Positions 4,756-26,098 of a stretch of DNA of 59,412 bases are shown one piece after another. Below the pieces are notes generated by a model that saw only the letters and a list, made by a program, of their open reading frames with translations, searched no databases and was not told the DNA's origin. The first letter of the stretch is position 1. Each line of letters starts with the position of its first letter. A program made the translations under genes and the position numbers. The DNA comes from a virus (taxonomy: Duplodnaviria; Caudoviricetes), in IMG/VR virus record IMGVR_UViG_3300032225_001111, positions 1 to 59,412 of that record, one strand, 5' to 3'.

Positions 4756-5196
4756 ATGAGTCCAATTAAAAATGTAGCCTTGATCAATAAATTGGGGCAA
4801 GTAGTCAATCATGTTGTAGTCGATACTGATGATAAAGAACTTTTAGATGCGCTTCATGTAGAGTGGGATACTCATCGCCATGTTGAGACCAAAGATGATG
4901 ACATAATTATTCTTCATCAATCAGAAGAAGTGTGGACAACTCACTGCAATGATCTTGAATGTGAAAATAAAGGATTTACTTTGCCTGATGCGGAAGTTTA
5001 TTTCAAAGCACTAGGAGTTGAAATTCCACCTGCGACTACAGAAATTGAATTTGTACCGCCTAAAGAAATTACAATTAACGGTCGCGTTTATCCAGAAGAT
5101 TCTTTATTGATCAAAGAAAATGCAGCAAGGCGTCCAGAAGGATGGGTATTACCAGAGGGAGTATTAGAAGTTTCGCTATCTGATAAAGATAAATAA
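4756..5196 (+). CDS. Hypothetical protein (possible fibre assembly chaperone)
   Basis: AGGAG RBS before ATG 4756; ALIN..G.VVN.VV motif directly after a Gly-rich fibre gene. Confidence 0.6.
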   Translation: MSPIKNVALINKLGQVVNHVVVDTDDKELLDALHVEWDTHRHVETKDDDIIILHQSEEVWTTHCNDLECENKGFTLPDAEVYFKALGVEIPPATTEIEFVPPKEITINGRVYPEDSLLIKENAARRPEGWVLPEGVLEVSLSDKDK

Positions 5197-5994: not shown

Positions 5995-6707
5995 AAACAG
6001 TTTATTGGTCGCCATTTTTTCCTATGGACGAATACCCATCAGTTCAATTGATGTATGAACAACCCGATCCTTTGCTTCAAGACCTTTTGCCACGTCGTAA
6101 CAAAAATGCCAATGGTGATAATTGGTTTCAATGTCATGCTTTTCAAGCAACTATTCGAAACACGTTTATTTTAAGAAATCATTTTTCTGCAACTTTTGCT
6201 ATTGACGATCAAATTGACATCATTCCAATAGACTTAAACGCCAAAAGAAACAGCAATTTTCTAGCAAGAAAACAACCATCAGTAATCAATGCTCAAACAT
6301 TTGCAACTAGAGGTTTATGGCTCTTTTGGTCGGAAGAACCATTGATAATAACGACCACTCCTGCTCATTATCATAAACCCGTATTTGATGGTTACTACAT
6401 AGGTGGGTCGTTTGACATTGGCAAATGGTTTAGACCAATAGAGGGGGCTATTCAATTAAATGAAGGCGTTAATACTGTTTCACTTAATCGCGGTGATCCA
6501 CTTGCTTATGTCAAGTTCGAAACTAAGGAGCCAATAACTCTAAAACGTTTTTACATGACAAAAGAATTAGAAGAACTAAATTGGGGTTGTATAAATTACA
6601 AACGCTATGAACCTAAAAAATCATTGAATTTTCTTTATGACAAATTCACACAGCGCGGATTAGACAAAATTATTACTCGTGAAATAAAAAAGAATTTGGT
6701 GGGCTAA
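5991..6707 (+). CDS. Hypothetical protein, island family B
   Basis: VYWS, QCxAFQ and GGxxDIGKWxRPI motifs; paralog of 7417..8139. Confidence 0.7.
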   Translation: MKTVYWSPFFPMDEYPSVQLMYEQPDPLLQDLLPRRNKNANGDNWFQCHAFQATIRNTFILRNHFSATFAIDDQIDIIPIDLNAKRNSNFLARKQPSVINAQTFATRGLWLFWSEEPLIITTTPAHYHKPVFDGYYIGGSFDIGKWFRPIEGAIQLNEGVNTVSLNRGDPLAYVKFETKEPITLKRFYMTKELEELNWGCINYKRYEPKKSLNFLYDKFTQRGLDKIITREIKKNLVG

Positions 6708-7420
6708 TGGACATAACTTTCATTCTTGATAAATCTTTGCCGTTTAGTAATTTAATTCCTTTAGAGTTTTATCCTATACCAGCATCAAAAGAAATTCCAG
6801 AATGGTATAAAAAAATGTCGTCTAGTTTAGACATTTCAGATCCCAAAAGGGCGAATGAGACTTCAACCATGAAGCGGTGCATGCCTATTTTTGATGCAAT
6901 TACTACGGGTTATTTGATCAAAACTTTTACAGACATAGTTATAGAAAAACAAGAAAACGGCAGTTACAAATGGTCATGGGCTTTGCCTATGAACGAAACG
7001 AGTTCTCCAATAGAAACTCATCCGGGTTTTCAAATGATGAACTATAAGGACATACCAAACATTTTAGGTTCAATGAAGTTTACAAATCCTTTTGGAATCA
7101 TAACCCCTAAAGGTTACTCTTGTTTATTTATGAATCCCCCGCATAGACCCGACTGGGGTGGTTCAATTTTAGAAGGAATTGTTGATACTGATTACTACCA
7201 TTCTCCTGTTAATTTTCCATTTTTCTATAATTTAGAAAAAGGTGTTGTGCCTGCTGGAACACCAATTGCTCTTGTTTTGCCATTTAAGAGAGAATCATGG
7301 AAAATGAGAATAGGTAGCGATAAAGATTTCAATAAATTGATGAATAGCAGAGGAACTGTTAGAAGTGTTTTTATTCAAGGCTATAAAAATTTTCTAAGGC
7401 AGAAAAAAGAATTCAAATGA
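6707..7420 (+). CDS. Hypothetical protein, island family A (DUF6065-like)
   Basis: Same motifs as 5230..5994. Confidence 0.7.
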   Translation: MDITFILDKSLPFSNLIPLEFYPIPASKEIPEWYKKMSSSLDISDPKRANETSTMKRCMPIFDAITTGYLIKTFTDIVIEKQENGSYKWSWALPMNETSSPIETHPGFQMMNYKDIPNILGSMKFTNPFGIITPKGYSCLFMNPPHRPDWGGSILEGIVDTDYYHSPVNFPFFYNLEKGVVPAGTPIALVLPFKRESWKMRIGSDKDFNKLMNSRGTVRSVFIQGYKNFLRQKKEFK

Positions 7421-8139
7421 ATAATGATCCGTTAATTGTTTATTGGTCATCGACTTTAAGTTTAGTGGAAGTTTATCGATCATTGCATAAACAAAAATCC
7501 AAAACACGTATTCAACCCGTAAATTTGCTTCAATGCCCAGCATTTCAAAACGGCATGGATAATTTGTTCATGTTAACTCTAACAAAAGATGAAAGTTATG
7601 AGTGGAATGTTGAGTGGGATTTAACTAAAGGTTTGAACAAAACTTTGGACATCCCGCGAACTCGTTATCAACATTTCGAAAATTCAGACTATTTTAATTT
7701 GCCCTACGCATTGAATTTATTTTGTGAAGAATCTTTACAAATGCAAGCAACCGCTCCATGGTTTCATAAGTCAACTTTTCAAGAAAAAGGCACTACAGTC
7801 GGGGGCATTTATGACATTGGAAAATGGTATCGCCCAATCATTATGGATGTTTGCGTATGGGGCAATAGCGGAAAGATTGATTTTAAGGCAAATGAGCCTC
7901 TTTATTACATAAAATTTTTGACAGATAGACCTGTCAAAATGGTGCGGTATAACAATACCCCCGAACTTGAACTTTTTGCTACGACCTTAATCAATGACCC
8001 TAATCGATCAATTGGCAAGCGGTTTGGAACATTGGAAAAACGCTATGAAATTTTTGCGCAATCGCCCATAAGGCAAGCGATAATTGAAGAAATCAAAGCC
8101 AACCTAGTGTCTGAGGACATCGCCAGCCCTAGCGTGTAG
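7417..8139 (+). CDS. Hypothetical protein, island family B
   Basis: Same motifs as 5991..6707. Confidence 0.7.
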   Translation: MNNDPLIVYWSSTLSLVEVYRSLHKQKSKTRIQPVNLLQCPAFQNGMDNLFMLTLTKDESYEWNVEWDLTKGLNKTLDIPRTRYQHFENSDYFNLPYALNLFCEESLQMQATAPWFHKSTFQEKGTTVGGIYDIGKWYRPIIMDVCVWGNSGKIDFKANEPLYYIKFLTDRPVKMVRYNNTPELELFATTLINDPNRSIGKRFGTLEKRYEIFAQSPIRQAIIEEIKANLVSEDIASPSV

Positions 8140-8945: not shown

Positions 8946-9353
8946 ATGGAAGTTAGAATTGTTTTTCCCAATGCCTCATTGATCGCAAAAGAAATTGCTG
9001 TTGCAGGTCGAGCGGGTGCAAGAGCCGCCGCCGAAGCATTACGTCACGAAGGACAAGAAGTCCTTGCTCAATCACTTGATGAAGTGCCAGTTGATACAGG
9101 CGCACTCAAAGCATCAGGTCGTTTGCTTCCTCAAAGCGGTGGCGTTATTCAATCGGGTAACACAATGGAAGTTCAAGTTGCCTTTGGTTCAACAGCCGCC
9201 GACTATGCCGTTTATGTTCACGAAAACCTTGAAGCCAATCACCCTCACGGCAAAGCAAAATACGTTGAAGGTCCTATGCTTAGGCAGGTTGTTGGGATTT
9301 CTCAGCGCATAGCAGATAAAGTAAGGGCTACTCAGAAAGGCATCATAAAATGA
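8946..9353 (+). CDS. HK97 gp10-like neck/tail completion protein
   Basis: VPVDTGALKAS...YAVYVHE...AKYVE motif. Confidence 0.8.
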   Translation: MEVRIVFPNASLIAKEIAVAGRAGARAAAEALRHEGQEVLAQSLDEVPVDTGALKASGRLLPQSGGVIQSGNTMEVQVAFGSTAADYAVYVHENLEANHPHGKAKYVEGPMLRQVVGISQRIADKVRATQKGIIK

Positions 9354-9745
9354 TTCTAGAGGCGATAGGCGACTTTTTAGTAACAAATGGATCAGGAACA
9401 CTAGGCACTAACCTTTTCCTCTCCAAAATGCCAGCAACGCCCGATTACTGCATTGCCGTTTATGAGTATGAAGGCATGGCTCCCATTGAAAGCATGGGGT
9501 CTACGGCTTATGACATCGACAAGCCAAGAATTCAAATCATTGTTCGTGGTGCGCGTGATGATTACCCAACAGCAAGAAATGGATTGAAAACAATTCGTGA
9601 CGCAGTTGCGGGCATCTCGAACACTACGATTTCTGGTACGAAGGTATTGCGTGTCATGTCGATCGGTAGTATTCTTCCGTTAGGGTTGGACGATAAAGAA
9701 CGACCTCGATTAGCCGCGAACTTTCAGGTATTTGTGGAGAGATAG
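9350..9745 (+). CDS. Tail terminator-like protein
   Basis: PRIQIIVRG and LGLDDKERP..AANF motifs; synteny. Confidence 0.75.
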   Translation: MILEAIGDFLVTNGSGTLGTNLFLSKMPATPDYCIAVYEYEGMAPIESMGSTAYDIDKPRIQIIVRGARDDYPTARNGLKTIRDAVAGISNTTISGTKVLRVMSIGSILPLGLDDKERPRLAANFQVFVER

Positions 9746-9903
9746 TGACTGATCAAGCGCCGATCAAAGATGCTTACGGACGGGGGGCTGATCGTGACGA
9801 AACGCCTAAGTGCTGGCGCTGTGGACGAATCCTTGCGGAATACCTTACAGTCCCGTATAGCCTCAAATGTTCAAGATGCAAAGCAGTCAACCAACACCTT
9901 TAG
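9745..9903 (+). CDS. Mu Com-like zinc-finger protein, putative translational regulator (not in ORF track)
   Basis: GTG overlapping the upstream TAG; 52 aa ...PKCWRCGRILAEYLTVPYSLKCSRCKAVNQHL, i.e. CxxCx3L...KCxRCx3N. Confidence 0.8.
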   Translation: MTDQAPIKDAYGRGADRDETPKCWRCGRILAEYLTVPYSLKCSRCKAVNQHL

Positions 9904-10144
9904 CCTAAAGGCGGGGTTGGAAAATCTTTTAGATAACCCAAATGTTTTCGATCCAACAGAATGTTTTGTTGGTCAAATAATCTCGCATCTAAGTCTTGAT
10001 GAAGCGCAATTGTTGAAAACCGCGCTCGCTGATAAACGAATCCGTCACGTCGATCTTGTTCGATTATGTGAAGCAGAAGGTTACAAAATGAGTGAAGCAA
10101 CAATGCGCCGACATCGAGCGCGTGGTTGTAGGTGCGATCAATGA
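9770..10144 (+). CDS. Hypothetical HTH-like/Cys-containing protein; true start probably after 9900
   Basis: C-terminal SEATMRRHRARGCRC; the 5' part overlaps the Com-like gene, so the start is uncertain. Confidence 0.55.
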   Translation: MLTDGGLIVTKRLSAGAVDESLRNTLQSRIASNVQDAKQSTNTFSLKAGLENLLDNPNVFDPTECFVGQIISHLSLDEAQLLKTALADKRIRHVDLVRLCEAEGYKMSEATMRRHRARGCRCDQ

Positions 10145-11340
10145 GTTTTGCTGATCGTGTAAATCGATTAGTTGAAGATACAGAGGAAGAAGCACTCAAA
10201 CCGCCCACGCGTGAAAAACAAGCCCAATGGCGCGAAGGTGTTGAATGGAATGGCACAGAAGGCTTTATCACAACAGGAGTATTAGAAGGCGAACTAAGCC
10301 CTAGTTGGGATGGTGTATTACGCATCTGGGGTCTTGATCCCGAGCAATTTATGGTTGTTGAACCAGTTTTATTCAACGTATGGGGCGATCCATTAGGCAC
10401 AGTTCAACGTCAATGGAAAGGCAAAGTTGTTCGCAAACAAGCGCAAGATGATTTTTATGATCTTGACGTGTTGAAAGAGGAAATCAAAAAACACAAACCT
10501 AAGAAAGTTTTGCCCCTTATGGGCGAAGGTGTTTTCAACGTTGTTCTTGCAGATTGGCAATTGGGTAAGCCCGAAGGCGGCGGTAGTAAAGCAACTGCGC
10601 AACGTGTTTTAGATTCGATCGATGCTGTTCTTGGTCGCGTTGAAGAATTGAAAAGACTCAAACGACCATTAGGAACACTTCAAATTATTTGGACAGGCGA
10701 TAGCGTTGAAGGGTGCATCGGTCACTATGAGATGCAGACATTTGGTACAGACCTTGATCGGCGAGCGCAAGTCAACGCAGTTCGAACATTATTGCTACAA
10801 GCAATCAAAACATGGTCGCCTTACTTTGAGAAAGTGCGTATAGTTGCAGTTGGGGGAAATCATGGCGAGAATCGATCAGCAAAAGGAAAAGCCTATACTA
10901 CCCTTGCGGACAATGATGATCTTGCAGTTATTGACCAAGTCAGAGATGTCCTTGAGTTCAACCCCGAAACCTATGGTCATGTTCAAACGATTATTGCGCC
11001 TGATCATCTTACAGTTACGATCGAAACGGCGGGGTGGATTTTAGGTTTGACTCATGGTCATACAGCGCGTGAAACAGGATCGGCTGAGGCAAAGATAAAG
11101 TCATGGCTATCTCGAATGGCACTTGGTCGTCAACCTATTGGCGAGTGTGACATTTTAGTGACAGGTCACTATCACCATTTACGTCAAGCGGATTGGGGTT
11201 CAGTTCAATGGCTACAAGCACCAGCACTAGATGGGGGATCGGAATGGTTCAGATTGATCAGGGGAGAACAGAGCGCGGCGGGAGTTCTGACGTTCGCGAC
11301 ATACCCCGAAGCGAAAGTGAAGGATCTGCAAGTCCTATGA
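10141..11340 (+). CDS. Calcineurin-like metallophosphoesterase
   Basis: DWQLG, GDSVEG, GGNHGE, HGH and GHYHH motifs. Confidence 0.85.
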   Translation: MSFADRVNRLVEDTEEEALKPPTREKQAQWREGVEWNGTEGFITTGVLEGELSPSWDGVLRIWGLDPEQFMVVEPVLFNVWGDPLGTVQRQWKGKVVRKQAQDDFYDLDVLKEEIKKHKPKKVLPLMGEGVFNVVLADWQLGKPEGGGSKATAQRVLDSIDAVLGRVEELKRLKRPLGTLQIIWTGDSVEGCIGHYEMQTFGTDLDRRAQVNAVRTLLLQAIKTWSPYFEKVRIVAVGGNHGENRSAKGKAYTTLADNDDLAVIDQVRDVLEFNPETYGHVQTIIAPDHLTVTIETAGWILGLTHGHTARETGSAEAKIKSWLSRMALGRQPIGECDILVTGHYHHLRQADWGSVQWLQAPALDGGSEWFRLIRGEQSAAGVLTFATYPEAKVKDLQVL

Positions 11341-11630
11341 TGACTCCGCAAGACATTGCCGACTATGCGGTTTCATTAGTGAGTGGTGATCGTCAAAATG
11401 ATTACGGACACCCAATCGATGACTTTACACGCGCTGGAAAAATTTGGGAAGCAATCTTAGGATTTCCAGTATCGGCAGAACAAGTTGCTTTGTGCATGGT
11501 AGGCGTAAAAATTGCTCGCGAAGTCAACAGACAAAAAATTGATAACACGATCGATGGCATCGGTTACTTCCTAACGCTAAGTATGGTGCAACAAGAACGC
11601 GCCGAGCGGGAAAAACGATCAACCGAATGA
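11337..11630 (+). CDS. DUF6378-like protein (possible nucleotide pyrophosphohydrolase fold)
   Basis: GDRQNDYGHP..F.R...W...VALCM..VKIAR...D.IGY; ATGA overlap. Confidence 0.75.
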   Translation: MMTPQDIADYAVSLVSGDRQNDYGHPIDDFTRAGKIWEAILGFPVSAEQVALCMVGVKIAREVNRQKIDNTIDGIGYFLTLSMVQQERAEREKRSTE

Positions 11631-11728
11631 TAGTCTTGACCCTGAAAGTGTCCTCAGAGACCTCAGCCGATACCGAGTCCTAGTGACCCTTGCGGTACTG
11701 AGGTCTTTTATGCCCTAAGGAGGCTGAA
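11628..11728 (+). promoter_or_regulatory. Tail-operon promoter and structured 5' leader with tandem GWGWCC sites
   Basis: TG-A-TAGTCT extended -10; stems AGACCTCAG/CTGAGGTCT and TACCG/CGGTA; AAGGAGG SD. Confidence 0.65.
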
Positions 11729-11968
11729 ATGGCTCAGTATCGTGTATTGGCTGGAATTGATTACCCGCCGAACAAACGCGCAGAAATTGGCGAGATCGTG
11801 ACCGATCTTCCCGGAAGCGCGATCAAAAGTCTTTTAGAAATTGGCGCAATTGAATCACTCGATGGCAAAAAAGCAGAGCCAGTAATTGAAGCAACCCCTG
11901 CGCCTGTTGAGGAAACACCTGCCCCAGTTGTAGAAGAAACAACAACAACAGAAGAAGCGGGTGAATAA
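11729..11968 (+). CDS. Small acidic tail-module protein
   Basis: Strong SD; coupled to the tail tube gene. Confidence 0.75.
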   Translation: MAQYRVLAGIDYPPNKRAEIGEIVTDLPGSAIKSLLEIGAIESLDGKKAEPVIEATPAPVEETPAPVVEETTTTEEAGE

Positions 11969-12696
11969 TGCCAACATTTCGTCACGGCAAAAATACCGTT
12001 GTTGCGATCAATGGATTCGACGCAACAACATTTTTCAATGATGCAACATCAACACGTATGATCGACACAGCAGAAACAACAGCATTTGGTTCAACTGCAA
12101 AGACCTACATTGCCTCTTTGCGCGATGGCACACTAAGCCTCAAAGGAATGTATGACGGCTCAACAGGTGCAGTCGATGAAGTATTCGCTGGCATTGCTGG
12201 TTCAACAACCGACGCAGTAGTTACAGTCGGTCTTGAAGGATCAACAGTTGGAACAGCATGTCACATGGTCGGTGCGATCGAAACAAATTATGAAGTTTCA
12301 GCAGTCGTAAGCGATCTCGTCAAGATTTCCGCCGATTTCCAAGGAGACGGCGGCTTAGATAGTGGAAAGATTTTACAATCTGGAACTATCTCAACAGCAA
12401 CGACAACTCTCGGAACAGCAGTCGACAACACAACATCTTCCGCTAATGGTGGTGTTGGACATGTTCATGCAACCGCGAATACTCGTTCAGGCACAACACA
12501 GTTAAAAATCCAGCATTCAACAGACAACTCAACATGGGTTGATCTTGTTACTTTTACTGGAATTGCAACAACCATAACAAGCGGAGAACGCATTGTTTTG
12601 GCGTCAGGCACAACCGTGAATCGTTATGTTCGTTCGAACATTACGACAAGCGGAACAGGAAGTATAACTACTAGCATCGCGTTTGCGCGGAGGTAA
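11968..12696 (+). CDS. Tail tube-like protein 1 with C-terminal extra beta domain
   Basis: MPTFRHGKN...TAETTAFGSTAK.Y shared with 12702..13118. Confidence 0.75.
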   Translation: MPTFRHGKNTVVAINGFDATTFFNDATSTRMIDTAETTAFGSTAKTYIASLRDGTLSLKGMYDGSTGAVDEVFAGIAGSTTDAVVTVGLEGSTVGTACHMVGAIETNYEVSAVVSDLVKISADFQGDGGLDSGKILQSGTISTATTTLGTAVDNTTSSANGGVGHVHATANTRSGTTQLKIQHSTDNSTWVDLVTFTGIATTITSGERIVLASGTTVNRYVRSNITTSGTGSITTSIAFARR

Positions 12697-12701
12697 AATA
12701 A

Positions 12702-13118
12702 ATGCCAACATTTCGTCATGGTAAAAATGCAACATTCAAGATCGGATCTTCGGGAACTCCAGGAACAGTAGTAGACATTTCCGCTGGTCTGACAGATGTT
12801 ACATTTCCACGTTCTATCGAAACTGCTGAAACAACAGCGTTCGGGTCAACAGCAAAATCTTATGTAGTCGGGCTACAGGATGCAACTATCAGCATCTCAG
12901 GCACATTCGACTCAACATTTGATGCACAACTAGCAGGACTTGCTGGTGTGGATACTGTTTCATTCGAATACTCACCAGCAGGAACTACAACTGGATACAT
13001 CAAGTATTCAGGCACTTGTGTAATGACATCTTATGAGGTTTCATCTACAGTTGGTGACGTAGTAAAAGCAAAAGCAGATTTCCAAGTAACTGGCGCGATC
13101 ACTCGCGGCACTAACTAA
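12702..13118 (+). CDS. Major tail tube protein
   Basis: ETTAFG..AKSYV.GLQD...Y.G...MTSYEVS..VGDVV tube pattern; precedes the chaperone. Confidence 0.8.
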   Translation: MPTFRHGKNATFKIGSSGTPGTVVDISAGLTDVTFPRSIETAETTAFGSTAKSYVVGLQDATISISGTFDSTFDAQLAGLAGVDTVSFEYSPAGTTTGYIKYSGTCVMTSYEVSSTVGDVVKAKADFQVTGAITRGTN

Positions 13119-13179
13119 TCTGATCACAACTAAATAAAATCAAACTTCGAGTCCTCGAGACCCAACTAAGGAGAGCAAC

Positions 13180-13566
13180 GTGTCCCTAAGAGACCAAATT
13201 CTAAACAAGCAAGACATTCCATCAGAGATCGTAAAGATCAAAGAGTGGGATACAGAAGTCAAAGTTCAAGGTATGACTGGCGCAGAGCGCACAAGAATTC
13301 TTGATCTTGCCATGCAAGAAGGCGATGGAGTAATGAACCTGCAAATGGTTTATCCAGAAATCGTCATTAGCACAGCGTTTGATCCTGAAACAGGAGAACA
13401 GATTTTTACTCCTACCGATCGAGCCGCGTTGCTCTCCAAATCAGCAGTAGCACTAGACCGACTTGCAACAGTTGGTATGCGTCTATCAGGTTTTACACAA
13501 GACACCGCAGACGCATTGGGAAAAGACTCGTCCGAAACGGTTATCGAAGATTCGTCTTTGAACTAG
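13180..13566 (+). CDS. Tail assembly chaperone (gpG-like)
   Basis: Lies between tube and tape measure genes; GGGAAAA slippery site near the 3' end. Confidence 0.85.
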   Translation: MSLRDQILNKQDIPSEIVKIKEWDTEVKVQGMTGAERTRILDLAMQEGDGVMNLQMVYPEIVISTAFDPETGEQIFTPTDRAALLSKSAVALDRLATVGMRLSGFTQDTADALGKDSSETVIEDSSLN

Positions 13567-13706
13567 CGGAAAGATTGGGAAGGACTGTTGATGAATTACT
13601 CAACGGCAGTCCTTCCCATAACCCAATTTCGGCAGTAGAACTTTCCGAATGGGAAGCGTTAGAAAAACTCCGCGTCTGGGAACAGGAACAGGCAAATAAA
13701 CGATAG
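13518..13706 (+). other. Programmed -1 frameshift and gpGT extension
   Basis: G GGA AAA at 13518-24 in the correct phase; the -1 frame reads RLVRNGYRRFVFELAERLGRTVDELL...ELSEWEAL... to TAG 13706. Confidence 0.85.
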
Positions 13707-23780: not shown

Positions 23781-25931
23781 ATGAAGCGTTCTTCCCCCAA
23801 AGAGCGCAAAAAGATAGCCGCAGAGGTTATGCGATTATCTCCTTTGTTGCTCATTTTAGGTTCGTTGTTTGCCCCAGCACAAGACGCTAATGCGTCATGC
23901 GTAACAACAGCCCAAACTGTTGCGACCGCATCAACTGCGGCGAATGTATTGAATACACAAGTGCCTATAACAGGGTCAGAAACCGCAACAGCAACGCCCG
24001 TAATCGTTCAAGACACCTGCGGTGGTGACGATGTTTCATACCAAGTCGCACTACCAACAGCAATCAATTTTCAAGGAACTGAATACAACGCTGTCTATGC
24101 AACAACTAACTCTACAATCGTCTTTGGTCGTCAAGATAATGACTTTGCAAACTTTCCGCGCACACCATCAATTTCAGTCAATGCCTACGACTGGGTAGTT
24201 CTTGATCCCGCAAACCCTAATCCTTCAAATGCTTATCCTGCGGGTTGGCGAGCGCCTGATGAACATTTGATCATCAGTTCAAGTCAAGCAGGGTTTCAAG
24301 TTGATTTAGCAGTTCGACCTTATGGCGTAAATGCCGCAGGTGTGCCTCTTTCAACAATTGTGGTAACTGCCGCGATCAATACAGACAATACTTTGACGAT
24401 CACTTACTTATCTGATGTTCAACAAGGCTTGAATACTCGAACAGGCGTTCGCTTGCCTGATGGTCGAGTTGTGACTTTAGCAGAGGCAGGAATGACAAGA
24501 GTTTATGTTGCGCCTGTTGTGACAGCAGAGGCAGTTCAACCTGCCCCTATTCCTTCTCCCACTCCGACAGAATCCGCTCCAACTCCAAGTCAATCGCCGA
24601 GTCCAAATCCGACCCCAACTGCATCCCCCGCGCCGTCACCCTCATCGACTCCTGCGCCTTCTCCAAGTCCGACGCCATCTTCCACACAGTCGCCAGTTGT
24701 AGAACCTTCACCAACCCCCACACCAACATCGTTGCCAACAACAACGCCGACACCCATACCATCTCCATTGCCTACCCCTTCCCCATCGCCTTCGAGCGTT
24801 CCTGATCCAACGCCATCTCCAAGTCAGACTCCCGTAGTCGAGCCTTCGCCAACGCCGACTCCGCAACCATTACCCTCGACCGCTCCAACATCAACGCCGA
24901 CTCCTGCGCCCGTTCCCGATCCCGCACCTGTTCCAAATCAACCTTCAAGTCCACAACCGCCAGTTGTAAGACCCGAACCGACTCCGCAACCCGTTCCAGC
25001 CGAGCCATCGGTGACTCCCGATCCGATTCCCGTACCACAGCCCGAACCTGCCCCTGTTCCACAGCCTGAGCCTGTTCCTGCGCCCGAACCCGCACCCGTC
25101 GACGCAACACCTATACCAACCCCTGAAACAGCCCCAGAACCAGCACCAGAACCCCCAGCAGAGCCAATGCCAGCCCCAGCCGACCCAATGCCCGTCGACC
25201 CCGCGCCGTTGCCTCAGCCTGAACCGCAAGACCCAGCACCAGCAGAAGAACCACCTGCAATACCACAAGAACCTTTGCCAATAGACCCACCTCCTGCCCA
25301 AAATGATAATCCACCAGCACCAGTTCCACAAGACCCGCCACCAGCACCGAACGACACTCCACCGCCAGTTGAGTTGATCGAAAATCTAAGTGCTAATCAG
25401 TTCCATGAGGAACTAGCGGCTGACAATGTTTCAATCGAACAATACAAAGCGATCGGACTTGCACCTAACAGTCCTGATCAGTTGCCTGAATTTACGCCAA
25501 AAGAAGCACCAGCAGAAAAACTTGTTGCACACATTCAAGAAGACAAAGCGGGTGTTGAAAATGGTGGTATTGAATTCTTTGGAACAAAATCGCAACCGCA
25601 AGTGATCGGTGAAGATGGTCAATTGACTCCACCACCACCAGCACCAGGTTCAGGCGATCCAATCCCACCTGATGCGATCACTCTTGCCGAAACATTTATT
25701 GGTCAAGTTGGTGGCGTTACATTCAACGCACCCGACGTAGCCGTTCCAGTATTACCGATCGAAGTAAACATTGACATTCCGGGTGTTGGTCAAGCCGCAC
25801 AAGCGGTTGCTGATGCCTATGTTGCGCTCGCAAACATCGGAAACGACATGTCGCCTGTTACGAGAAAGAAGGCGAAGAAGATACTCGTTGCTACACTTGT
25901 CGGTGGCATCGTTCTAAGGAGAAAACCATGA
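23781..25931 (+). CDS. Exported, Pro-rich, C-terminally anchored surface protein
   Basis: Signal peptide ending ...AQDANA; about 280 aa of PSPT/PEP repeats; C-terminal ILVATLVGGIVL followed by RRKP. Confidence 0.8.
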   Translation: MKRSSPKERKKIAAEVMRLSPLLLILGSLFAPAQDANASCVTTAQTVATASTAANVLNTQVPITGSETATATPVIVQDTCGGDDVSYQVALPTAINFQGTEYNAVYATTNSTIVFGRQDNDFANFPRTPSISVNAYDWVVLDPANPNPSNAYPAGWRAPDEHLIISSSQAGFQVDLAVRPYGVNAAGVPLSTIVVTAAINTDNTLTITYLSDVQQGLNTRTGVRLPDGRVVTLAEAGMTRVYVAPVVTAEAVQPAPIPSPTPTESAPTPSQSPSPNPTPTASPAPSPSSTPAPSPSPTPSSTQSPVVEPSPTPTPTSLPTTTPTPIPSPLPTPSPSPSSVPDPTPSPSQTPVVEPSPTPTPQPLPSTAPTSTPTPAPVPDPAPVPNQPSSPQPPVVRPEPTPQPVPAEPSVTPDPIPVPQPEPAPVPQPEPVPAPEPAPVDATPIPTPETAPEPAPEPPAEPMPAPADPMPVDPAPLPQPEPQDPAPAEEPPAIPQEPLPIDPPPAQNDNPPAPVPQDPPPAPNDTPPPVELIENLSANQFHEELAADNVSIEQYKAIGLAPNSPDQLPEFTPKEAPAEKLVAHIQEDKAGVENGGIEFFGTKSQPQVIGEDGQLTPPPPAPGSGDPIPPDAITLAETFIGQVGGVTFNAPDVAVPVLPIEVNIDIPGVGQAAQAVADAYVALANIGNDMSPVTRKKAKKILVATLVGGIVLRRKP

Positions 25932-26098
25932 AAGACTTTATTAGTGACCTTGCCTCACAGATTTGGACATTTGTAGGACTATTCGTAGGCTGGTTAGTTC
26001 TTACAGGATCAGCAAAAACAGTTGTGGGGTATGCAAACATCATTGCCATTGTGCTTTGGGTTGCAACCTTCCCTATTCGTCGGGATAAAGAAGAATGA
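25928..26098 (+). CDS. 56-aa two-TM membrane protein (not in ORF track)
   Basis: MKDFISDLASQIWTFVGLFVGWLVLTGSAKTVVGYANIIAIVLWVATFPIRRDKEE; ATGA overlaps on both sides. Confidence 0.75.
   Translation: MKDFISDLASQIWTFVGLFVGWLVLTGSAKTVVGYANIIAIVLWVATFPIRRDKEE

Follow-up and report, generated by a model that had tools for sequence, protein, structure and literature searches.

The window analyzed here (IMG/VR record IMGVR_UViG_3300032225_001111) is a complete tailed-phage record of 59,412 bp with direct terminal repeats, in which a short gene missed by gene callers appears to encode a divergent zinc ribbon of the Com type. Com is known from Mu-like phages as the dedicated activator of a single DNA-modification gene, mom. 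Four RNA mini-hairpins lie in the leaders of two tail genes of the window, and from the gene and its family likeness, the hairpins with their conservation and covariation, and the co-occurrence of both parts in related genomes, we infer that the Com-like protein is likely to bind these hairpins and to control tail-gene translation. The 52-amino acid (aa) ribbon would be made from the end of the head/neck gene block and would recognize all four hairpins, two in the 5′ leader of the tail operon and two around the ribosome-binding site (RBS) of the tail assembly chaperone gene, and its binding would set the amount of tail proteins translated. The core of this idea, a hidden Com-like finger acting at tail-gene starts, came from an original prediction made on the letters of the window; it passed all computational tests, while three of its points had to be revised. 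The elements concerned are the following, with square brackets around the strands of each stem.

9745 to 9903, plus strand: gene for a 52-aa Com-type zinc ribbon, CxxC-x15-CxxC, conserved and selected in this frame
11648 to 11662, plus strand: hairpin HP1, GU[GUC]C-UCA-GA[GAC]C (GTGTCC-TCA-GAGACC in DNA), stem 11650-52 with 11659-61
11675 to 11688, plus strand: hairpin HP2, GA[GUC]C-UA-GU[GAC]C (GAGTCC-TA-GTGACC), in the loop of the larger hairpin P1
13149 to 13162, plus strand: hairpin HP3, GA[GUC]C-UC-GA[GAC]C (GAGTCC-TC-GAGACC), 5 nt before the chaperone Shine-Dalgarno (SD) sequence
13180 to 13195, plus strand: hairpin HP4, GU[GUC]C-CUAA-GA[GAC]C (GTGTCC-CTAA-GAGACC), its first three bases being the chaperone GTG start

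We take the 52-aa open reading frame (ORF) to be a real gene. Its GTG start overlaps the stop codon of the tail-terminator gene (TAGTG) and follows a GGAG 5 nt upstream, and its existence as an unlisted gene, as originally claimed, is borne out by homologous loci, invariant residues and codon-position bias. Relatives are encoded at 32 viral loci with 47–96% identity, and an iterated search placed members of the family in 54 of 115 loci. Seven residues (C23, C26, P37, C42, R44, C45 and K46) are invariant in 18 diverse members, and comparison with ten near relatives gave 109, 65 and 235 differences at codon positions 1, 2 and 3, respectively. The gene is hidden by a 124-aa ORF (9770–10144) whose start codon is missing in all ten of these relatives and whose frame contains stops in two of them (L097 and L108, in our numbering of loci); the first third of this ORF is probably not coding. 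Because it is longer, overlaps the zinc-finger gene out of frame and would be preferred by gene callers, the shorter gene would be passed over. The same gene is unannotated in Arthrobacter phage Laroye, where its ORF falls between genes 35 and 36, and appears as gene 5, a “hypothetical protein”, in phage Ottawa. A word-based search of 5.8 billion proteins with the 52-aa sequence returned no candidate, which fits an uncalled gene and proves nothing.

The encoded protein can be classed, at the level of sequence profiles, as a divergent homologue of Com. With 52 aa and one zinc ribbon (C23-x2-C26-x15-C42-x2-C45), it has the size (about 50–65 aa) and layout of the Com type. In line with the Com pattern pointed out in the original prediction, a profile of 18 homologues aligned in hhalign with the whole ribbon of Mu Com (probability 93.7%, E 1.9e-7, 29 columns, both cysteine pairs), and the protein also matched the PHROG family phrog_6417, annotated as a translational regulator (E 7.3e-4). 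Among the 18 homologues, 11 matched the Pfam family Zn_ribbon_Com (PF10122) at E up to 0.1, the best at 3.1e-5.

We scanned both strands of the whole record for the motif GWGWCC-N2-4-GWGWCC. Exactly four pairs were found on the plus strand, all in the two tail leaders, and none on the minus strand; the reversed pattern gave no match on either strand. The single hexamer GWGWCC is rarer than expected (44 vs 75.2), and 150 genomes simulated with a first-order Markov model contained 0.1 pairs on average and 3 at most, with at least one pair in 12 of the 150, so that frequent occurrence by chance, which the scan might have revealed, does not apply. A looser hairpin pattern added only two plus-strand and two minus-strand matches elsewhere, which is the chance level. 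The coordinates first given for all four pairs, and the placing of HP2 in a hairpin loop, were right. The description of each pair as two tandem sites is the first point to be revised: the hexamers are present as described, but their fourth letters covary, and we read each pair as one mini-hairpin, GW[GWC]C-N2-4-GW[GW′C]C, whose 3-bp stem is closed by C-G and followed by a C, and whose loop has C as its first base and GA or GU as its last two. Rfam models gave no match at gathering scores over the window and only chance-level matches, at E up to 10, in 11500–13400.

Eighty loci were collected through the tail tube gene and 32 through the zinc finger, and copies of the window (L001–L004) were left out of all counts. 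Relatives of both genes carry hexamer pairs on the plus strand at the same two places. Position 4 is T in one hexamer of a pair and A in the other, and the order of the arms swaps between close relatives, from GAGTCC-AA-GTGACC in L086 to GTGACC-AA-GAGTCC in L088; in close relatives HP2 has its arms swapped in this way (GTGACC-AA-GAGTCC) with pairing kept. When position 4 was left free (GNGxCC-N2-4-GNGx′CC), x and x′ were Watson-Crick partners in 143 of 192 distinct plus-strand contexts (TA 89, AT 31, CG 15, GC 8), as against 14 of 51 on the minus strand. With two stem positions free, pairing was kept in 247 of 643 cases on the plus strand and 94 of 542 on the minus strand, a count from which loci numbered L117 or higher, which are named phages or sub-loci of contigs included elsewhere, were left out. 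Since stem positions left free still pair, and do so more often on the plus than on the minus strand, the hexamer pair is best understood as an RNA hairpin. Stems at orthologous places include GTC/GAC, GAC/GTC, GCC/GGC, GGC/GCC, TCC/GGG, CCC/GGG, TCC/GGA and the 4-bp GAAC/GTTC, with some G-U pairs. In this generalized form the hairpin occurs in 62 of the 73 distinct leaders of the chaperone, where the reverse-complement control gave 0 and the shuffle control 1, and in 59 of the 69 distinct leaders of the tail operon, where they gave 1 and 3; two chaperone leaders scored as lacking a site, L099 and L111, reflect a wrongly chosen end of the tube gene and not a real absence.

These counts leave next to no chance that the hairpins are an accident or a by-product of coding, for instance of a GTG start followed by conserved first codons. 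HP4 does overlap chaperone codons 1–6, and the GAGACC-N3-GAGACC pairs inside tube genes are plainly coding: all 14 contexts with A at both positions encode Glu-Thr-x-Glu-Thr, 13 of them in major tail protein genes and one elsewhere (L043, 7969). However, three of the four sites in the window are non-coding, with about 0.1 expected per genome, and the sites are kept where the peptide differs, with reverse-complement and shuffle controls near zero. At the chaperone itself the N-terminus varies between clades (MSLRD..., MSIKD...) while a hairpin is kept, and the clades differ in whether the partner arm precedes or follows the start.

Further hairpins of the Com type sit on start codons of other genes in other clades (L006 1281–1296, L011, L014, L019, L042, L017, L027 904, L037 1092, L123 3071). 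The genes concerned include a 97-aa gene heading the neck block and a 354-aa ORF that follows a DUF6378 gene (GTGCCC-GGC-GTGGCC), and the presumed regulon would therefore differ between clades. Separately, L044 (1662–1741), L049 (about 270–330) and L053 contain runs of four to six GTGNCC units at 8–9-nt spacing, in which neighbouring hairpins share arms.

At the chaperone start, HP3 and HP4 flank the SD sequence AAGGAG (13168–73), and HP4 overlaps the GTG at 13180 and so holds the start codon. Folding revealed no stable or inhibitory structure in the RNA of this start: over 11 distinct chaperone leaders the RBS was 0.42–0.72 unpaired, with minimum free energies of −4.7 to −8.2 kcal/mol. Because the RNA is otherwise open, the two hairpins flank the SD and one of them contains the start codon, a protein bound here would probably block the ribosome and thus repress translation, which suits the smaller amount of chaperone needed compared with tube protein. 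The best functional analogue of HP4 is the replicase operator of MS2/R17, a hairpin containing the start codon of another gene that is bound by the coat protein, which represses translation. MS2 is, however, an RNA phage whose coat protein has an unrelated fold and whose hairpin has an unrelated sequence.

The tail-operon leader is built differently, and three elements have to be added to HP1 and HP2.

11658 to 11706, plus strand: hairpin P1, of 9 bp (11658-66 with 11698-706) and 5 bp (11671-75 with 11693-97), enclosing HP2
11717 to 11731, plus strand: SD AAGGAGG and ATG of the first tail-operon gene, with GGCTGA (11722-27) complementary to TCAGCC (11663-68)
11628 to 11636, plus strand: possible extended −10 element TGATAGTCT, 11 nt before HP1

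The stem of P1 is formed by AGACCTCAG (11658–66) and CTGAGGTCT (11698–706), a pairing that the original prediction had noticed in the window and that proved to be conserved with covariation. RNAalifold supports P1 with changes on both sides in 6 of 10 pairs; 96.3% of cells in the alignment are paired compared with 85.9% in shuffles, and the covariation score is 0.405 compared with 0.211, with none of 500 shuffles as high and slid controls at 0.003–0.098, all figures that lean towards the structure, given the relatedness of the sequences and an alignment made to fit the model. P1 opens its 5′ arm with the same three bases that make up the 3′ arm of HP1 (GAC), so that only one of HP1 and the base of P1 can form at a time. 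In L016 and L062, an A-to-G change in the second hexamer keeps pairing in both HP1 (U-G) and P1 (G-U). A 93-position model of the leader, built from 32 leaders, gave a single plus-strand match in each of 38 sources out of 69 (E 3e-15 to 7e-3), none of them a named phage or a member of a clade whose leader is laid out differently. Bound to HP1, the protein would be in competition with P1 and would thereby remodel the leader, just as happens with Com beside the inhibitory structure of mom, and on this model the effect could go either way, raising or lowering translation. RNA binding, and the influence on timing or stoichiometry of tail synthesis that the original prediction drew from it, are to be read as predicted, which is another of the points revised.

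A second pairing, between TCAGCC and the GGCTGA at the SD, had been proposed to compete with P1. In the window it is favourable (−11.1 kcal/mol vs −6.1 for shuffles), and a distant high-GC (guanine-cytosine) clade has a matching 8–9-bp anti-SD pairing reaching −19.9 kcal/mol; in 15 distinct leaders of the window's own clade, in contrast, it is absent and worse than in shuffles, and it is significant in only 11 of 56 leaders. HP1 adjoins the anti-SD stretch in two clades. We rejected anti-SD pairing beside HP1 as a general mechanism, since it is missing from the window's own clade.

Control in this leader could instead be transcriptional, with P1 and the UUUUAU directly behind it acting as an intrinsic terminator and binding to HP1 opening the base of P1 to allow read-through, a Com-gated attenuation that we consider distinctly unlikely. 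The window alone would suggest it, because P1 is strong here, stands directly before UUUUAU and shares its bottom three pairs with HP1. The U run, however, is not conserved: among 32 aligned leaders, that of the window is the only one with at least four T in a row after P1, and the high-GC clade has GCCGCG there. Nor did the terminator scan list P1, and gated termination gives no account of the chaperone sites that overlap the SD region and the start codon. As the U run is unique to the window, such termination would be at most a local addition to translational control by the Com-like protein. A simple scan for promoters and terminators found nothing above shuffles. In high-GC relatives TGTAGAAT stands at the same distance of about 11 nt before HP1, often behind a terminator-like hairpin, and a promoter may lie just before HP1, with a predicted transcript start about 5 nt ahead of that hairpin. 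RNA sequencing run X15 yielded only short contigs of a relative, covering parts of 11673–13529, without transcript ends and possibly with DNA present.

These promoter-like elements bear on a further alternative, that the hexamer pairs are DNA operators through which a helix-turn-helix neighbour or a host factor regulates an upstream promoter. In both kinds of leader −10-like elements precede the first pair by about 11 nt, and a helix-turn-helix-like gene adjoins the zinc finger, as this would call for, yet we hold the alternative to be very improbable. The arms are 2 to 4 nt apart and the stem has 3 or 4 bp, the central positions are free provided that they pair, including as G-U at orthologous sites (L016, L062, L012), which fits RNA better than a base-specific reading of DNA, and several sites lie on a start codon far from any promoter-like element. 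Homologues of the helix-turn-helix gene occur in 32 of the 54 zinc-finger loci; it is absent within the flanks of the other 22, and we rejected it as a universal partner.

All genomes checked that have hairpins at the leader or the chaperone start also have the zinc finger, and five outgroups (ValentiniPuff, Mae-JY09, CRP-406, HTVC111P and phiPsal1) have neither the zinc finger nor either class of tail site. In the high-GC clade, where 5-kb flanks had not shown it, the gene was present in all five long contigs, and Arthrobacter phages Laroye, Kovu and Ottawa carry the zinc finger together with a hairpin at the chaperone start. The gene stands 56–130 nt upstream of the leader in L006, L011, L014, L019, L012 and L042. 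Protein and site also shift together: the T(V/I)PYSL form of the protein in the window's clade goes with loops ending in GA (42 times) or GU (10 times), and the TxPWxI form of other clades with loops ending in GU (115 of 118 sites). Motif and gene, whose covariation had been named as a check, go together in every genome tested, though this is suggestive only.

The site can also be compared with the published Com target. For the Com zinc finger of Haemophilus sputorum, the sections of PMC6483171 drawn on here describe a consensus from systematic evolution of ligands by exponential enrichment (SELEX) of NGAGNNCC(N)2-3GAGNNCCNN in 868 of 999 sequences, whose cores flank a 3–4-nt stem with a loop-closing pair that is always C-G, and state that the GA of the loop is needed for binding, that the natural Mu site partly overlaps the translation inhibition structure and that mom starts with GUG. 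We parsed the site in the Mu record as GA[AUGC]C-UGC-GA[GCAU]CC. The window sites, with one stem pair fewer, resemble it in the 5′ GA or GU, the closure of the stem by C-G, the first (C) and last (GA or GU) bases of the loop and the 3′ C, and in that the 3′ part of the site overlaps the next helix, which is the translation inhibition structure in Mu and P1 here. The gene targeted by HP4 starts with GUG, as mom does according to those sections; both proteins are small, with one four-cysteine (CCCC) zinc ribbon; and in several relatives, though not in the window, the gene immediately precedes its presumed target, as in the Com module. Because the hairpin had been derived from covariation before it was compared with PMC6483171, this agreement counts as independent support. 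There are also differences in biology. The presumed targets are tail morphogenesis genes and not a DNA-modification gene, there are four sites at two places and not one region, the gene is 1.7 kb from the first site in the window, the geometry at the chaperone start suggests repression and not activation, and the phages infect, or are related to phages of, Actinobacteria and not Proteobacteria.

Several findings weigh against binding of the hairpins by this protein. The window protein itself scores 12.4 bits (E 0.11) against Zn_ribbon_Com, below the cut-off of 22.9, and a search of solved structures with the zinc-finger profile gave only chance-level matches to zinc-binding proteins and no Com entry. 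The stem in the window has 3 bp (GWGWCC, GWG-N1-CC) compared with 3–4 bp (GAGNNCC) in the SELEX target as given in the sections cited of PMC6483171, and most clades have GU where those sections call GA crucial. The raw x/x′ table contains roughly as many A-C mismatches as G-U wobbles, most of the mismatches falling at unrelated positions in coding sequence. When HP1 was blocked in folding, RBS accessibility rose in 18 and fell in 11 of 56 distinct leaders, by +0.01 on average. The gene and its sites are 1.7 kb apart in the window, with three genes between them, and up to about 19 kb apart in the high-GC clade, and one strict site, away from the two tail positions, is found in the Microcystis phage Mae-JY09, a phage without the gene. 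Finally, the gene and the hairpins both belong to the core of a single phage lineage, so that their co-occurrence and the shift between GA and GU represent few independent events and are suggestive only.

Some of these points would also be expected if the hairpins were real and read by something else, such as a host factor, a ribonuclease that processes late transcripts, the ribosome or the product of the 79-aa gene behind the leader, with the zinc finger doing an unrelated job. The link between Com-type protein and hairpin comes from comparison of sequences, the gene can be far from the sites, one phage has a strict site and no zinc finger, and the 79-aa gene always follows the leader, as would be expected of an autoregulator. 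We nevertheless regard another reader as improbable, given that the layout of the site matches the published Com target in five respects, that finger and hairpins co-occur in all genomes tested and are both absent from five of five outgroups, and that the loop dinucleotide shifts together with the protein sequence.

Beyond the window, we see about an even chance that Com-type fingers and GW[GNC]C-type hairpin operators form a general layer at which late structural genes are controlled post-transcriptionally, in a broad actinobacteriophage lineage that extends from phages of freshwater metagenomes to the Arthrobacter phages of soil. Under this general reading, one protein would both repress the chaperone on its start codon and remodel the tail-operon leader, protein and operator would co-evolve as a GU-reading TxPW form and a GA-tolerant T(V/I)PY form, and the gene would be missed systematically by callers because of a longer out-of-frame ORF overlapping it. 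Com would then stand for a family of translational regulators that is widespread among phages and whose operators follow a readable code, and not for a curiosity of the mom operon. In the present case, a Com-type protein and site appear to govern synthesis of the tail tube and chaperone in a large family of phages with hosts in another bacterial phylum. If so, they would tie the ratio of tail parts in siphophages to a concrete protein and its operator, make regulated genes predictable directly from sequence, explain a small conserved gene that annotation pipelines skip, and provide a compact, possibly orthogonal protein–RNA pair for translation control in Actinobacteria. The cultured phages Laroye, Kovu and Ottawa carry both parts, which makes the hypothesis directly testable at the bench.

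A literature search, which did not cover supplements, found no paper on Com-type control of tail genes. The nearest precedent for other targets comes from Mu-like prophages, in which com-like genes lie upstream of DNA adenine methyltransferases (PMC3299994, in the sections drawn on here); Com homologues can thus pair with targets other than mom, as we propose, but those targets are still a single DNA-modification gene at the mom position, and the sections concerned report no structural-gene targets. In Cluster K mycobacteriophages, the 13-bp repeat 5′-GGGATAGGAGCCC, the start-associated sequence (SAS, with an extended form, ESAS), contains the SD and stands at dozens of non-structural genes; the sections of PMC3203893 drawn on here give little support for RNA pairing of the extended repeats and describe the binding factor as unknown. 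Like the window sites, the SAS as described there is a short oriented repeat within a few bases of start codons in actinobacteriophages with a proposed role in translation initiation; unlike it, the window sites are few, belong to late structural genes, show clear covariation of pairing and come with a candidate binding protein.

The genomic setting of the system is as follows, given for the rows not yet listed.

9350 to 9745: tail terminator gene, end of the neck block (Pfam E 1.7e-15)
9917 to 10144, plus strand: 75-aa helix-turn-helix-like gene, start most likely TTG at 9917
11729 to 13118, plus strand: first part of the tail operon, with the 79-aa gene (11729-11968) and two major tail protein paralogues (11968-12696 and 12702-13118)
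13180 to 13566, plus strand: tail assembly chaperone gene with GTG start (phrog_344, E 6.7e-20)

Nearly all ORFs of at least 150 aa in the window lie on the plus strand. The gene order runs from the neck genes through the tail terminator, the zinc finger, the helix-turn-helix-like gene, a metallophosphoesterase gene and a DUF6378 gene to the 98-nt leader, and on through the 79-aa gene, the two major tail protein paralogues and a 61-nt leader to the chaperone and tape measure genes. No DNA similarity to deposited phages was found for the window. The tail tube protein (12702–13118) is 41–48% identical to major tail proteins of Arthrobacter phages and freshwater metagenome runs contain DNA near-identical to the window; for both reasons the host is likely to belong to the Actinobacteria.

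The neck and tail blocks are separated (10132–11630) by the 402-aa, exonuclease-like metallophosphoesterase (phrog_284, E 6e-57) and the DUF6378 protein; the corresponding position in Laroye holds a MazG-like gene and other non-structural genes. The TTG start of the helix-turn-helix-like protein at 9917 follows AAGGCGGGG, and the C-terminal half of the protein (..KRIRHVDLVRLCEAEGYKMSEATMRRHR..GCRC) is near-invariant in near relatives. A homologue of the 79-aa gene is on the plus strand in 102 of 130 loci. Its product (YRVLxGIDYxxxKRAExGD..) always stands between the leader and the major tail proteins, including gene 63 of Laroye and gene 60 of Kovu, and has a match to PHROG 7924 (unknown function) and a weak one to a head-tail connector family; the protein may be a regulator in its own right. 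Four Arthrobacter and Microbacterium phages without the HP1/P1 leader (Laroye, Kovu, Ottawa and ValentiniPuff) share a conserved box GGCGTGTC(G/T) upstream of the small tail-operon gene (L117, about 5010–5025; L118, L134, L135).

Both major tail protein paralogues begin with MPTFRHGKN, and the longer one (11968–12696) has an extra C-terminal part with a weak match, below the cut-off, to the F5/8 type C (galactose-binding-like) domain (E 1.7e-4). Between the chaperone and tape measure genes lies a 43-aa ORF (13575–13706), which may be a frameshift extension of the chaperone; in Kovu and Ottawa the chaperone is annotated as a joined product. Base composition varies along the window: GC content falls to 0.35 across ORFs 6707–7420 and 7417–8139 in the head-gene region (interval 6001–8000) and reaches 0.52, with a GC skew of −0.24, at 24–26 kb (interval 24001–26000; ORF 23781–25931).

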